Assembly: GCA_030428205.1 (NCBI GenBank)
Contig: JAUIBK010000021.1
Span: 2,523 to 66,522 of the forward strand
Source: a bacterium
Lineage (GTDB): Bacteria > Bdellovibrionota_C > UBA2361 > RFPC01
Length of the DNA stretch: 64,000 nt
Direction: 5' to 3'
Shown here: piece after piece, positions 10,763 to 15,010 of the stretch
Numbering within the stretch: the first letter of the stretch is position 1
Layout: every line of letters begins with the position of its first letter
Translations under genes and position numbers: made by a program
Notes under the pieces: model-generated
What the model was told of the DNA's origin: nothing
What the model saw: only the letters and a program-made list of their open reading frames with translations
Database searches by the model: none

Positions 10763-11932
10763 ATGTCCCATCTATGTAAGTGGAAAGCGATTGCTTTCCT
10801 TCTCATTCTCTCCTTTCCATGTACGCTACTCGCGAATGGCAAAGTTCTTACTTGGAATTGTAGTGAGTTTGGATCTGGTTGTACCAACGCCATTCCTGAA
10901 GTCGGCACCTCTGGATCAATGGTGTCTTCCGTTGTTACCGTCCAGTCCGCAGCCGATCAGTGTCTTCCGGGCTCAGACCTTGACGCAGAGAGTGTCGCAA
11001 TACGTTTCAAGGCAACACACACTTTTCGTGCCGATCTTGAAGTCAGTGTCACTCACATTCCAACAGCAATTACCGCTGAACTCTTCTCTGATGTTGGTGG
11101 CTCTGGTGATGATTTTGACGTAACGATTGATGATGTCAATGGCGCGAGCAACATCGGAGACGGCAACTGTGCATCTGGAAGTAACTGTATTGGAACGTTT
11201 CGGAGTGAATCTGGTACAGCACTTGCCGTTTTCAATGACATGGACGCGACAGGAGACTGGCGCCTCGATGTTCTTGACGATGCGGGTGGAGATGCTGGCC
11301 AACTCGTAGAGTGGGGAGTATCTGTTTACCTCAAAGACTCTGACGGTGACGGCATAACAAACTGCTACGACCTTTGCCCTGAAATTTCGAATTACCTCGA
11401 TAGTGATGGAGACGGAACTCCTGATTGTTCTGACCAGTGCTCAAGTGATGCTGACAAAATCTCCGCTGGAGCCTGTGGCTGTGGCGAGTCAGATATTGAT
11501 GCTGATGGCGACACTATTCCGAACTGTTTTGACGACTGTCCGATGGACTCAGGAAAAGTATTTCCTGGAGTATGTGGCTGTGGTGTCTCAGATGCAGATG
11601 CAAACCTCAACGGCATTGCTGACTGCATGATCCAAGAGGAATTCAAAGACTTAGTTGCCCGCTCTCTTTCAAAAGTTAAGAGACTCCGTGCTGGAGGGGG
11701 AAATAAAGCACTGAAGAATGAGGTATCAGCTCTTGCTACTGAACTCGAGGAATTTGTTGCTCTTTCTGTGGCATCAATTGTTACAATTGACGCTTCTGTC
11801 GATGTTCAAGCAATGAGCACAAAGACAGCCAAGAAGATGCGCAAGTCTACGAAGACAACATCAAGCAAGTTTAAGAAGCTTAAGAGAAAAGCTAAGAGAG
11901 CACTCTTAGACCTAGCTGACGGTCTCGCTTAG
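10763..11932 (+). CDS. Secreted protein with an N-terminal proprotein-convertase P-domain-like module, thrombospondin type-3 Ca-binding repeats and a basic C-terminal tail
   Basis: Signal peptide, P-domain signature GDWRLDVLDDAGGDAGQLVEWGVSVY, three DSDGDGxxNCxDxCP repeats, and a Lys-rich C-terminus. Confidence 0.55.
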   Translation: MSHLCKWKAIAFLLILSFPCTLLANGKVLTWNCSEFGSGCTNAIPEVGTSGSMVSSVVTVQSAADQCLPGSDLDAESVAIRFKATHTFRADLEVSVTHIPTAITAELFSDVGGSGDDFDVTIDDVNGASNIGDGNCASGSNCIGTFRSESGTALAVFNDMDATGDWRLDVLDDAGGDAGQLVEWGVSVYLKDSDGDGITNCYDLCPEISNYLDSDGDGTPDCSDQCSSDADKISAGACGCGESDIDADGDTIPNCFDDCPMDSGKVFPGVCGCGVSDADANLNGIADCMIQEEFKDLVARSLSKVKRLRAGGGNKALKNEVSALATELEEFVALSVASIVTIDASVDVQAMSTKTAKKMRKSTKTTSSKFKKLKRKAKRALLDLADGLA

Positions 11933-11965
11933 TTAGAGCTTCGTTCATTCCCAACATTGCTCAAG

Positions 11966-12006
11966 AGCGCCCCTGTTCGAATATCGACCAGGGGCGCTTT
12001 TTATTT
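11966..12006 (+). terminator. Rho-independent terminator
   Basis: AGCGCCCCTG-ttcgaatatcga-CCAGGGGCGCT followed by TTTTATTT, directly after the 10763..11932 gene. Confidence 0.65.
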
Positions 12007-12236
12007 ACTCCTCACACACACCCCTCACTCAGCATAAAAACGGGGAAAAAGAGAGGCTAGGAAGATTTCCTATTTCCGAATTCTTCTGTATTATCATGCA
12101 GATAGGGGATACTTCCTTATGTGACACCCCCACATGGAGTGCTAATAACATGGTTGAAATCTCTCTTAGTAGGTTAAGATAGTAATAGTTCCTCCAAGCA
12201 GGCACTGGAGGAGAGAAGGTTCCATAGAGGGGAATA

Positions 12237-14621
12237 ATGCTGCAAGGCCTTGAAATAGCTCTTATTGAAGCGGTCATATCATTTTACCGCCTGGGGCCAG
12301 CTGTGGGCTTACTCTTCTTTGGTATCCCCGGTGTTGTTTGTCTTGTCTACAAATTCACAAATCCTGAGTCCTCAATCATTCCAGCTATCGCCTCTGCCCT
12401 CTTTTTCATACTCGCATTCTTACAAGTTTTTGCCGGCGGAATGGTTGCGAGCCAACTTTATGGCGTCATTGAGCTACTCAATACCGCCCACCCACCAAAT
12501 CCAGTCTTTCTCCTAGAGCCTGTTTTTGCGTGGCTTGTTGCTCCCGCAGAGTATCGCTACGTACACGAGGAGTTTTTCTTTGTTCTGCTTGTTGCCTACC
12601 TCACAAGTTTTTCAATTATCGGATACCGTGAGTACAAAAAGACAGGGATCCTCATCGGAGACCTCAACCTTGTCAACTTTATCTCTAATTCAAAGGCACG
12701 TCCTGAACGGTCGAAGTCAAACGAGCTTGGCTCAGCCGATCTTGCGAATACAGAAGAGATCACTCGCTGGACCAAAGAGCGCACTGACTACACACACTCT
12801 CCACCATATACGAAGCTCAACGTTGAAGAGCTCAAAGGCTCAGAAGGTATCGCACTGAAAAGTGGTCACCTCATGGTTCCACAAGGTGAACGGAACCGGC
12901 ACATGCTCATGATTGCAAAAACCGGTGGTGGTAAAACAAGTAAATTCATCTTACCGATCTTATACGATGACTGTCTCTGTCCCATTCGCTCTACTATTGT
13001 TCTCGACTCGAAGCCTGAAATGTGGGGAAAACTAGCGAATTTTACCCGCAAATATAACCCAGAAAAAGAGCTCCTCCTCTTTAACCCGCTCGATACTCTA
13101 CGAAGCTTAAGCTGGAATATCCTAAGTAAAATTGAAAACGACACTGATGCTAAGCTTATTGCCAACACCATTATCATGGCAACAGACAACCCGTCGGCAA
13201 AATCTGATAGTCCATTCTTTCGTAACAACGCCCTTCAAATTCTCAATGGCCTTATGGTTGGCCTCCTCTCTGATAAAGAAGAGAAACTTTCCATGCCCCG
13301 TATTCACCAATTGGTGCAATCTGGGATGAAGGAGCTCGCCAACTGGATTGAAGCCCATCCTGAAGCACTTCGTACGACCAAAACATTTGTCGACCTTGCT
13401 CGTTCAGGTTCTCAAAATGCTGATACCATTATGTCAGAGCTCGGTATGCGTCTTGCTGCTTGGGACTTAAAAGCTATCCGATCTACCACCTGGCTCAACG
13501 AGCTCAATCCAGAGACACTCGTCGAAAAACCAACACTGATGGTCGTCGAACTTCGAGAATCTGAGTTAGAGATGCTCCGTCCGATGGCGAACGTCATTGT
13601 TGTTGAGCTTCTTCGCTACCTCACGAAACGGGCAGAATCATGCCCCGGCCACAAACTCCCTCGACCTGTTGGATTCGTTATCGACGAGTTTGCGAGTGCC
13701 CTTGGGCGCTTACCCGACATTCACGTCAAACTCAATACGTTGCGCTCTCGTAATGTAAGTATCGTGGCTGCAATTCAGTCTATTGCTCAGGTAAAAGCAA
13801 ACTACGGTGATGATGCTGACTCGGTACTCGCTGGTTTTAGTTCAAAGATCTTTCTTCCCCCACTCGATCTACAAGACGCGGAGTGGGCTTCGAAAGAAAC
13901 TGGGCAGATGACGATCCGCTTTCAGACAAAATCAACAGGAAGCAACAAGAAGAAGATTGAATTTTTTGCTAGCCAAAATGACGGCACACAAGAACAAGTA
14001 CAACAACGTGCCGTACTCACACCTGACGAAATCGGTCGCCCACCAGACAAGATCACAACATTTTTTCTTCCTGAAACACCTCCGTTTCAGGGACATATCA
14101 AGTTCTACTTCAAGATCCCCGAAATGCTTAACCGCATTAAGGAATCAGAGGATGCAGATGAACTTCTCCTCCGCGAAACTCCTATTGAGATCGAAGAGGC
14201 TGCTCCTCAGGTCGTACCCGCACAGCAGCAAGGCGGAGCCGCTGCTGGAGGAGGAGCCGCTGCTGGGCCACCAGCAGGGATTACCGACACCAAGGGGTGG
14301 AACGACGATCAAGTCCGTGAAAAACTCGAAGAAGTCAAAAAAGTCCTCGACTGGGAAAACACTACGGGAAGTGCAAAAAAATGGTGGGAGGCTTTTGAAA
14401 ACGAAAACAAACACCGCCTCGCCCTTGTCCTACGTTTAGCAGAAGAACTCAAGAATAGAAATGCGACTATTACCGAATTCTTCCTCGCGTATGTCTATAG
14501 TAATACGGATAACATCCAGGCGAACCTCTGCTACCTCGACTACACTCGCTTAAAGAAAGAAGAAGAGCGAAAGAAAAAGGAAGCTGCACAAAAAGCGAAA
14601 GCGCAAGCTGCGAATGGTTAA
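12237..14621 (+). CDS. Type IV secretion coupling protein (VirD4/TraG/TraD family ATPase) with two N-terminal TM helices and a low-complexity, coiled-coil C-terminal extension
   Basis: Walker A IAKTGGGKTS, Walker B and downstream T4CP signature VGFVIDEFASALGRLPDIHVKLNTLRSRNVSIVAAIQSIAQVKANYGDDADSVLAGFSSKIFL, and a C-terminal QQQGGAAAGGGAAAG plus KKEEERKKKEAAQKAKAQAA tail. Confidence 0.7.
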   Translation: MLQGLEIALIEAVISFYRLGPAVGLLFFGIPGVVCLVYKFTNPESSIIPAIASALFFILAFLQVFAGGMVASQLYGVIELLNTAHPPNPVFLLEPVFAWLVAPAEYRYVHEEFFFVLLVAYLTSFSIIGYREYKKTGILIGDLNLVNFISNSKARPERSKSNELGSADLANTEEITRWTKERTDYTHSPPYTKLNVEELKGSEGIALKSGHLMVPQGERNRHMLMIAKTGGGKTSKFILPILYDDCLCPIRSTIVLDSKPEMWGKLANFTRKYNPEKELLLFNPLDTLRSLSWNILSKIENDTDAKLIANTIIMATDNPSAKSDSPFFRNNALQILNGLMVGLLSDKEEKLSMPRIHQLVQSGMKELANWIEAHPEALRTTKTFVDLARSGSQNADTIMSELGMRLAAWDLKAIRSTTWLNELNPETLVEKPTLMVVELRESELEMLRPMANVIVVELLRYLTKRAESCPGHKLPRPVGFVIDEFASALGRLPDIHVKLNTLRSRNVSIVAAIQSIAQVKANYGDDADSVLAGFSSKIFLPPLDLQDAEWASKETGQMTIRFQTKSTGSNKKKIEFFASQNDGTQEQVQQRAVLTPDEIGRPPDKITTFFLPETPPFQGHIKFYFKIPEMLNRIKESEDADELLLRETPIEIEEAAPQVVPAQQQGGAAAGGGAAAGPPAGITDTKGWNDDQVREKLEEVKKVLDWENTTGSAKKWWEAFENENKHRLALVLRLAEELKNRNATITEFFLAYVYSNTDNIQANLCYLDYTRLKKEEERKKKEAAQKAKAQAANG

Positions 14622-15010
14622 TAGTCTCTCAGACAAGAAGTAATTTCCAAGATACCGCCATGCTCATCGTGAAGCACGAGAGAGCTCTCCGCATCAAGTG
14701 CAAACTTTCTTGCTAGATGAACAGCATCGTTATAACGCTGTAAGATCACGGAAAGCTTTGGACGCCCAGGAAAAAGCACGGCCCATCCTTTAGGGTGTGG
14801 GATAACATGGACATGAAAAAAGAGAGCTCTTGGGAGCTCTTCAGCAACGTGATAAACGCTCACAATACTTGACGCAACCGTCTGAGCCTCTTGAAATCCA
14901 TACCCAGCTTCAACAAAGTCCATGGCAAGCCGTAAGGTTTCGACTTTTCCATCAACCGGCATCTCGTCTGGTAGTGGAGGAGTAAGTTTATAGGCAACAT
15001 TTTCTGACAT
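14618..15010 (-). CDS. Hypothetical protein, DUF2188-like. Its 3' end overlaps the T4CP gene convergently by 4 bp.
   Basis: The KGWAV...HDEHGGILEI pattern resembles DUF2188. This is a weak call. Confidence 0.35.
   Translation of the reverse strand: MSENVAYKLTPPLPDEMPVDGKVETLRLAMDFVEAGYGFQEAQTVASSIVSVYHVAEELPRALFFHVHVIPHPKGWAVLFPGRPKLSVILQRYNDAVHLARKFALDAESSLVLHDEHGGILEITSCLRDY

Follow-up and report, generated by a model that had tools for sequence, protein, structure and literature searches.

This report concerns a stretch of 64,000 nucleotides (the window) from a member of the Bdellovibrionota (GenBank assembly GCA_030428205.1, contig JAUIBK010000021.1, positions 2,523 to 66,522 of the forward strand) and, within it, a stand-alone gene for an ATPase of the type IV coupling protein (T4CP) family, i.e., of the VirD4/TraG type. 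Between a gene for a secreted protein with a P-domain and a small convergent gene, this ATPase gene is found shortly before a group of flagellar genes. A previous sequence-only reading had described it as an orphan, since no genes for a type IV secretion system (T4SS) or a relaxase were seen nearby, and had proposed either a relic of an integrated conjugative element or a coupling ATPase co-opted for a function other than conjugation. The features of the locus are compiled in Table 1; the boundaries of the three open reading frames (ORFs) given by that reading were confirmed.

Table 1. Coordinates of features at the locus, as positions in the window (aa, amino acid residues; TM, transmembrane; AF2, AlphaFold2 model; pLDDT, predicted local distance difference test score)
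Feature	Position	Strand	Basis
T4CP-family ATPase gene, 794 aa, stand-alone	12237..14621, stop codon included	+	ORF, Pfam, homologues, fold
N-terminal membrane anchor, aa 1-136, 3-4 predicted TM helices	12237..12644	+	hydropathy, AF2
Juxtamembrane motif RPxRSxxNELGSxDLA, aa 155-170	12699..12746	+	invariant columns R155...A170
ATPase motor, aa 186-640, nucleotide-binding domain and all-alpha domain	12792..14156	+	Pfam, alignment
Walker A, AKTGGGKT, aa 227-234	12915..12938	+
Walker B, VIDEF, aa 481-485	13677..13691	+
Gly/Ala/Pro-rich flexible linker, aa 641-680, of variable length and sequence	14157..14276	+	alignment without consensus, pLDDT
Conserved five-helix C-terminal module, aa 681-778	14277..14570	+	GW...LDWxNTTGSAKKWWEAFE...ATITEFFLAYVYSNTDNIQANLxYLDYTRLKK
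Short Lys/Glu/Ala-rich tail extending the last helix of the module	14571..14618	+	sequence; AF2 helix 760-792; variable among homologues
Secreted P-domain protein with Asp-rich repeats, 389 aa	10763..11932	+	P_proprotein 26.4 bits, cut-off 21
Intrinsic terminator of the P-domain gene	11963..12010	+	hairpin and T-run
Sigma-70-like promoter match in the 304-bp gap 5' of the T4CP gene	12154..12183	+	TTGAAA-18-GATAGT, 9/12 matches, weak
DUF2188-like small gene, convergent with the T4CP gene	14618..15010	-	DUF2188 24.3 bits

Comparison of the 794-aa product with Pfam gave three matches above the respective cut-offs, as expected from the T4CP architecture that had been proposed: T4SS-DNA_transf at 1.3e-40 (140 bits, cut-off 20.1; aa 193-636), TrwB_AAD_bind at 6e-31 (108 bits) and TraG-D_C at 6e-23 (81.6 bits). 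Both Walker motifs (AKTGGGKT and VIDEF) and the IDEF...AIQS...YG block are present and do not vary among 54 aligned full-length homologues; a nucleotide-binding domain with Walker A and B is the family-defining feature of T4CPs (PMC7431656, PMC7434980). Three or four membrane helices are predicted, where the sequence-only reading had given two: hydropathy indicated segments at aa 12-41, 43-74 and 111-131, and the AF2 model contained anchor helices at aa 2-17, 21-41, 48-81 and 109-136 (pLDDT 80-91).

Foldseek searches with the AF2 model of the full-length protein, which is only moderately reliable (pLDDT 67, about 30 in the region of Walker B), returned two coupling proteins as the sole strong fold matches in the PDB, namely Cagβ of H. 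pylori (8DOL, E 1e-10) and TrwB (1E9S/1E9R, E 2e-7 to 8e-6). Sequence searches of the PDB, with the family profile as well as with the single sequence, matched no T4CP, and the fold search alone recovered them. FtsK (2IUS) was obtained at E 2.1, and the FtsK_SpoIIIE profile did not match the ORF at E<=0.01; profiles and fold both side with the T4CPs and not with FtsK/SpoIIIE. All curated NCBIfam models for T4CP subfamilies scored far below their cut-offs, the top one being conju_CD1115 with 191 versus 250 bits (TraG, 66 versus 586; TraD, 56 versus 521; VirD4, 41 versus 681), and the product is remote from the characterised T4CPs. It has the three structural parts by which T4CPs are defined (nucleotide-binding, all-alpha and transmembrane domains), of which the all-alpha domain is an insertion in the nucleotide-binding one and the transmembrane domain is found in most, not all, T4CPs; linkage to a T4SS or relaxase was not seen in the window or in the loci of relatives, and the scores for the curated subfamilies lie below the cut-offs. 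The gene almost certainly encodes a real and functional ATPase of the T4CP family.

The juxtamembrane motif RPxRSxxNELGSxDLA lies in a region predicted to be disordered (pLDDT <50 over aa 144-166). It is retained in relatives with different anchors and, as RPxR...GSA(R/H)xA, in distant soluble relatives; it could mark the clade or serve as a short linear motif for interaction. The C-terminal part had been described as a Gly/Ala-rich low-complexity stretch followed by a Lys/Glu-rich coiled-coil tail. Such a linker (pLDDT <50 at aa 659-677) and a short Lys/Glu tail do exist, but between them is a globular five-helix domain, which had been overlooked although it is the protein's most unusual feature, and is called the module below.

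Conservation and genomic context of the ATPase gene

When 5.8 billion proteins were searched, full-length homologues (about 790-830 aa, 62-90% identity) were found in more than 120 clusters, the named sources being metagenome-assembled genomes (MAGs) of Bdellovibrionales, Oligoflexia or "Deltaproteobacteria". Scanning of species-representative genomes revealed the gene, full- or near-full-length, in at least 27 species-level MAGs, which were nearly all assigned to Bdellovibrionota, Bdellovibrionales or Oligoflexia; all carriers of this type of gene are uncultured. The orthologues are 57-90% identical and lie in syntenic housekeeping contexts. Two arrangements were seen on long contigs: one, as in the window, consists of glycosyltransferases, a PAS-response regulator, the T4CP, flagellin, a β-CASP protein and two FliD, the other of enolase, Lnt, OmpA, thiolase and the T4CP, followed by HolB. 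The recurrent neighbours were confirmed by a tblastn synteny table of 34 loci.

Neither T4SS nor relaxase genes were detected within +/-10 kb of the T4CP gene in five 20-kb loci of relatives annotated with Pfam. A further 14 loci contributed 90 large flanking ORFs. The families that recurred among them were those of glycosyltransferases, ABC transporters, response regulators, enolase, thiolase and GTPases, and no T4SS or relaxase family did, in a census which counts only families seen at least two times. There was also no conserved partner gene beside the T4CP gene in the loci compared. For the window itself, essentially all ORFs of at least 120 aa were compared with Pfam or NCBIfam. Its content is that of an ordinary chromosome (LptD, PGK, AccD, Asd, TruA, PurM, Lnt, genes for dTDP-rhamnose and GDP-mannose), and neither VirB4, relaxase nor integrase was found in this survey, in agreement with the sequence-only reading, which had also reported no VirB11. 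The sole T2SSE ATPase (54814..56244) was rejected as a VirB11 candidate, since it scored 565 bits with PilB and 528 with GspE versus 54 with VirB11, i.e., it is of the PilB/GspE type. An ORF of 316 aa without family match precedes this gene, and directly after it, within 54814..56699, a stand-alone receiver-domain protein is encoded.

Selection was assessed by nucleotide comparison with five orthologues. Proportions of non-synonymous and synonymous differences (pN and pS) were used, since saturation of the synonymous sites (pS 0.77-0.96) precludes exact dN/dS values. For the motor, pN values of 0.09-0.18 were obtained at a pS of about 0.8, and for the module values of 0.07-0.15; pN amounted to 0.32-0.45 in the linker and to 0.38-0.52 in the membrane anchor, which evolves fastest among the structured parts. 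Purifying selection on the gene, as judged from these proportions, is strong. The GC content of the gene (0.474) equals nearly that of the window (0.473), the nearest tRNA gene (tRNA-Leu, at 25990) is 11 kb away, and no attachment-site signature was noticed at the gene, with no search aimed at att repeats having been made.

From its distribution and synteny the gene appears as a lineage-wide, vertically inherited, core-like single-gene function of the chromosome in uncultured Bdellovibrionota/Oligoflexia. Very probably it is neither a conjugation gene nor the relic of an integrative conjugative element, and works without an adjacent T4SS. Co-option for a non-conjugative role, one of the two explanations offered previously, agrees with the vertical conservation, the intact ATPase motifs, the low level of non-synonymous change and the lack of T4SS and relaxase genes nearby in the loci examined; the other one, an element relic, is contradicted by the native GC content and by the absence of an integrase, a relaxase and an attachment-site signature. 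Literature searches yielded no paper on orphan VirD4/TraG proteins in Bdellovibrio-like bacteria.

The C-terminal module and its carriers

The first sign of the module came from the scan of species-representative genomes, which contained two matches to residues of about 675-790 only (74-77% identity). One was on a contig of Sedimentisphaerales (Planctomycetota), at the C-terminal end of a 563-aa ClpX-like AAA+ protein, the other on a cyanobacterial contig, with two copies in a 503-aa protein. The longest invariant run of the entire coupling protein lies in the module (T744-N763, ...TEFFLAYVYSNTDNIQAN...). With an alignment of 38 sequences across architectures, AF2 predicted a domain of five helices at a pLDDT of 95.2. 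Comparisons with Pfam, PDB and BFVD gave no match for the module, nor did any of the Pfam models derived from papers on conflict systems (Kaur et al. 2020, 2021); it belongs to no described family and has no structural neighbour. An interpretation as HEPN-like RNase was discarded, since the Rx4-6H motif is not conserved in the alignment, as was an interpretation as helix-turn-helix or DNA-binding domain, for which there was no structural support and no winged-helix neighbour.

Per-domain BLAST against distant T4CP-module proteins gave 26-37% identity with the window protein for the motor and 59-81% for the module. In these remote relatives the conservation of the module thus exceeds that of the motor two- to three-fold, and the module is under much stronger constraint; this constraint acts at the protein level, as shown by the saturation of the module's synonymous sites. 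Motors about 70% identical to that of the window protein occur in a sister set (P0233-P0238), whose N-terminal anchors are unrelated and whose modules are much more divergent (23-64%) and sometimes duplicated. These sequences suggest paralogous sub-families in which the module was released from constraint.

To survey the occurrence of the module, phmmer was run exhaustively against 1.84 billion representatives, and per-domain BLAST and Pfam scans were added. At least about 110 module-bearing protein clusters were present among the top 150 matches, from Bdellovibrionota, Planctomycetota, Verrucomicrobiota and Cyanobacteria. Besides the membrane-anchored T4CP-module proteins of the window clade, there are soluble ones without TM segments and others with N-terminal extensions of 230-440 aa which lack a family assignment. 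Some polypeptides combine a ClpX-like AAA+ domain, a T4CP domain and the module (P0257, P0263, P0284), and in others a ClpX-like AAA+ domain is joined to the module directly. Further carriers are STAND (AAA_16)-TPR proteins with two modules, DUF4062-STAND proteins ending with modules, proteins in which TPR and modules are combined with a Ser/Thr kinase (one such gene belongs to an operon with Trypco1 and a trypsin-like protein), and small proteins of two or three modules. Fusions with a T4CP domain have one module, and proteins without a T4CP domain have nearly always two in tandem. A further non-conjugative architecture of the T4CP family, without a detectable module, is P0310 (1138 aa), in which a VIT-vWA N-terminal region is followed by a T4CP-like ATPase. 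The nearest relatives that lack the module (P0285, P0311) are encoded on short contigs, which show little of their context.

The soluble and fused T4CP-module relatives are also stand-alone genes without T4SS context. In the stand-alone ClpX-like carriers both Walker motifs are retained, together with the GARGL sensor motif, a pore-1 loop of the sequence GY(V/K)G and a loop reading IGF or FGF; these proteins look therefore like working unfoldases, potentially capable of docking ClpP. Among the ClpX-T4CP fusions, P0263 retains a GYHG pore loop and the IGF loop, and P0257 and P0284 are without recognisable pore-1 motif. One solitary ClpX-T4CP-module fusion (locus L037, 789..3755) is situated beside a PIN/MazE toxin-antitoxin pair. 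On a contig from a cyanobacterial MAG (L035), the stop codon of a bDLD3-NB-ARC-TPR STAND NTPase gene (444..3179) is overlapped by the gene for the 503-aa two-module protein (3163..4674), a two-gene arrangement typical of conflict systems; the N-terminus of the two-module protein showed no similarity to the bDLD3 domain of the neighbouring STAND protein by BLASTP, which is an insensitive test. The operon with Trypco1 has three genes (L044, 207..6145), which encode Trypco1, a trypsin-like protein of 1057 aa and a protein of 820 aa with two modules and a Ser/Thr kinase. One Oligoflexia genome contains, 7 kb upstream of its T4CP gene, a separate gene for a module of 100 aa with 55% identity (L032, 518..820, minus strand).

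Only one of 2.9 million viral contigs contained the module, namely the IMG/VR contig L042 (1..4246). Its module belongs to a ClpX-like protein, in which the IGF loop is intact; the next gene encodes a protein of 808 aa that has several TM segments in its C-terminal part and matches no family. A phage origin of the module was rejected, since this sole viral match is a ClpX-like gene of host type.

Possible functions and comparison with known systems

The best explanation, which is considered probable, is a T4SS-independent member of the T4CP family that became fixed in uncultured Bdellovibrionota/Oligoflexia as a vertically inherited single-gene function and carries a putatively partner-recognising module. 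By analogy with other T4CPs, the protein would assemble as a ring at the inner membrane, which would result in six tethered modules. Each module could serve as a recognition or docking domain for catching a conserved cytoplasmic partner, which would then be presented to the ATP-driven ring for remodelling or translocation, without a type IV secretion channel. The chances that the module is a partner-recognition domain, as proposed from its architecture, seem about even; in other T4CPs the C-terminal domains, which are variable, serve for the docking of substrates or adaptors, as in TraD-TraM and DotL-IcmSW (PMC7434980). Its partner is perhaps a protein, which would be likelier than DNA because the same module occurs on ClpX-type unfoldases and in covalent ClpX-T4CP fusions. 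Rather speculative is the wider notion of a cross-phylum targeting system, in which ring motors of two unrelated superfamilies (ClpX-type AAA+ and T4CP-type FtsK/HerA), which are sometimes joined in a single chain, as well as STAND sensors and kinases, would be sent to one conserved cellular target; in the present case, the motor would be an inner-membrane-anchored, coupling-protein-derived translocase or remodeller without T4SS channel, fixed as a core gene.

Several points weigh against the best explanation. A T4SS elsewhere in the chromosome is possible, as the scans covered the 64-kb window and the loci of relatives. The hexameric state and the membrane topology are inferred ones, and the full-length AF2 model is moderate (pLDDT 67, about 30 around Walker B). 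The conflict-system contexts of the module in other organisms (STAND, Trypco1-trypsin, toxin-antitoxin) could point to an immune role, or to a homotypic adaptor and not a substrate receptor. Its extreme conservation across phyla would also fit a small-molecule-binding or catalytic domain.

As to the physiological role, behaviour as a core gene in Bdellovibrionota favours housekeeping (envelope or export), and the STAND, Trypco and toxin-antitoxin contexts of other carriers favour immunity. It seems unlikely that the protein is a component of conflict or immunity systems, in the sense that the module marks an NTPase-based defence or abortive-infection family, to which the Bdellovibrionota protein would belong as an effector or sensor anchored in the membrane; this explanation is partly compatible with the best one, since it concerns the role and not the mechanism. 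It would account for the fact that, outside Bdellovibrionota, STAND NTPases and DUF4062-STAND proteins end with the module, and for the module next to the bDLD3-NB-ARC-TPR STAND protein, in the operon with Trypco1, trypsin and kinase, and in the fusion beside PIN/MazE. There are precedents for recruitment outside conjugation, since the effectors listed for ternary conflict systems include ATPases of the FtsK type (PMC7159879, PMC8195603) and T4SS-DNA_transf domains are present in three Menshen NsnA proteins (PMC12065111), but these are rare fusions in multi-gene, patchy defence loci, while the window gene is solitary, syntenic and lineage-wide. Components of the VirD4/TraG or ClpX type, or the module, are not mentioned in the three papers (PMC12065111, PMC7159879, PMC8195603). 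Associations with STAND, Death-like, EAD or Trypco domains were seen for other carriers of the module, and not for the window gene or its Bdellovibrionota orthologues, which behave like core genes, having a fixed syntenic position, 57-90% identity, no variable island and no linked sensor or effector. PADLOC 2.0 gave no significant full-length match to a defence protein for the T4CP, the only result being mad8 with a partial match of 36 bits at the level of the P-loop, and the STAND and two-module proteins had no match. The module is, furthermore, nearly absent from viral contigs (1 in 2.9 million) and nearly frozen, whereas adaptor domains of defence systems usually diverge fast.

The remaining explanations concern the motor. 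That the protein is a conventional coupling protein, serving in trans a T4SS and a relaxase whose genes lie in other parts of these genomes, appears improbable. In favour of it, all defining domains of T4CPs are present, the scans covered the window and the loci of relatives only, and T4CP genes are separable from those of T4SSs, as in mobilizable elements which use a T4SS in trans (PMC4027160, PMC7434980). MobB of CloDF13 is such a T4CP without its own T4SS (PMC7431656, PMC4027160), but there relaxase and oriT reside on the mobile element, and the window locus has no relaxase or mobile-element features. Against it, neither the 64-kb window nor +/-10 kb of sequence in relatives contained a T4SS or relaxase, the scores with curated subfamilies are far below the cut-offs (CD1115 191 versus 250, VirD4 41 versus 681), conservation and synteny resemble those of chromosomal core genes and not those of mobile elements, and close relatives of the motor occur in soluble form or fused to ClpX, also without T4SS context. 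Still less probable is a DNA pump that works by itself in the manner of FtsK/SpoIIIE/TraB, i.e., a membrane ring which moves DNA and whose module, like the gamma domain of FtsK, recognises DNA or a recombinase. FtsK consists of a TM anchor, a motor, a flexible linker and a small C-terminal recognition domain. The window protein shares this layout, with a small helical domain at its C-terminus, as well as membership in the FtsK-HerA superfamily, and FtsK and SpoIIIE act without a secretion channel; T4CPs are thought to be derived from DNA translocases (PMC4027160), and the module ends MalT-like STAND proteins, where DNA-binding domains are common. The FtsK_SpoIIIE profile does not match the window protein, however, the fold match is poor (E 2.1), and the module differs from a gamma domain in not being a winged helix. 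That the gene is what remains of a decaying conjugative or mobilizable element after integration, as might be suspected for a chromosomal T4CP-family gene without partners nearby, is effectively refuted by the conservation data: the ORF of 794 aa is intact, with invariant catalytic motifs and strong purifying selection, many species have an orthologue in syntenic position, and native GC content is combined with a lack of integrase, relaxase and flanking tRNA gene (the nearest being that at 25990, 11 kb off).

With VirD4, TrwB and Cagβ the window protein has in common the N-terminal anchor, the RecA-like nucleotide-binding domain with Walker A and B and the all-alpha domain. It differs from them in the absence of T4SS, relaxase and mobile-element context and in its vertical, core-like conservation, as well as by 3-4 TM helices, where two are usual, and by a module unknown in conjugative T4CPs. 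A working analogy for the module is provided by TraD of the F plasmid, which binds TraM, and DotL of Legionella (IcmS/IcmW/LvgA), both consisting of a motor and a recruiting C-terminal extension (PMC7434980); those extensions are acidic, variable and system-specific, whereas the module is a folded five-helix domain, nearly frozen, and shared with unrelated ATPases and STAND proteins. ClpX with its adaptor-docking zinc-binding domain is similarly a ring ATPase with an accessory domain for selecting substrates. The module-bearing ClpX-like paralogues lack the N-terminal zinc-binding domain and have the module at the C-terminus, the stand-alone ones keeping pore-1 and IGF-type loops; the window protein itself has no AAA+ domain.

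To our knowledge, T4CPs are treated as obligate parts of T4SSs for conjugation or effector translocation, and as markers of mobile elements. While the T4CP family itself is known, a motor of this family outside a T4SS context, with an undescribed and exceptionally conserved module, is new. A solitary, lineage-wide and vertically inherited T4CP would mean that a coupling motor has been re-used for a chromosomal function, and that annotation pipelines mislabel such genes as "conjugative DNA transfer". The module is shared by unfoldases of the ClpX type, motors of the T4CP type, STAND NTPases and kinases, and evolves far more slowly than its motors. Finding its ligand would give a function to at least about 110 protein clusters in four phyla, and could bring to light either a new branch of bacterial immunity or a new principle by which ring ATPases receive their substrates. 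Whether substrates of T4CPs are unfolded before translocation is an open question, for which the ClpX-T4CP fusions are also relevant.

Neighbouring genes and transcription unit

The P-domain gene upstream is strongly terminated, as had been noticed, the hairpin at 11963..12001 having a free energy of -28.4 kcal/mol (z -6.48; none of 200 shuffled sequences was equally stable). At the other end, the T4CP gene and the DUF2188-like gene both stop within TTAA at 14618..14621, which confirms the convergent overlap of 4 bp reported before. With a terminator upstream and a convergent gene downstream, the T4CP gene forms its own transcription unit. Sigma-70-like sites upstream of it were not more numerous than expected from shuffled sequences, and the promoter match in Table 1 is a pointer only.

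For the secreted protein, the P-domain assignment held, and the thrombospondin type-3 (TSP3) repeats remained below the Pfam cut-off (17.4 versus 25 bits), with Asp-rich repeats visible by eye. The proposed association of the T4CP with this protein and with the DUF2188-like gene was not supported, since homologues of neither were found near the T4CP gene in 34 related loci; both were thus rejected as T4CP partners, and are incidental neighbours outside the T4CP system. The small convergent gene differs between relatives, being DUF2188-like in the window, PDDEXK_3 in L006, an unrelated 127-aa ORF in L001 and absent in L007, and these small genes lack homology (E 0.09). The 4-bp convergent overlap of stop codons recurs at the 3' end of the T4CP gene with non-homologous small genes (L001, 12406..12409; L006, 12436..12439).

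Between the PAS-response regulator and the T4CP gene, a stretch of about 5 kb (7255..11932) contains an unassigned 274-aa ORF, the gene for a collagen-like protein, Lnt and the P-domain gene. It is missing at the corresponding position in L006 and L007, the closest relatives with long contigs, where the T4CP gene follows directly after the PAS-response regulator; the P-domain gene is therefore part of a lineage-specific stretch. The collagen-like protein (8249..8833) is a secreted protein with short collagen-like triplets. Lnt was also found in another sub-lineage, 2-4 kb upstream of the T4CP gene (L003, L014, L033).

Downstream of the T4CP and DUF2188-like genes are those for flagellin, a β-CASP RNase and two FliD proteins, and the position of the T4CP gene just upstream of a flagellar block was thereby confirmed. 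The RNase gene (16585..17964, minus strand), which encodes a protein of the β-CASP/RMMBL type with metallo-β-lactamase fold, is located between flagellin and FliD, and occupies the same place in many related loci; such an RNase is unusual as a conserved neighbour of flagellar filament genes. The FliD (filament cap) paralogues are arranged in tandem (18326..19780 and 20218..21627), and the pair is kept in L001, L006, L007 and L019.

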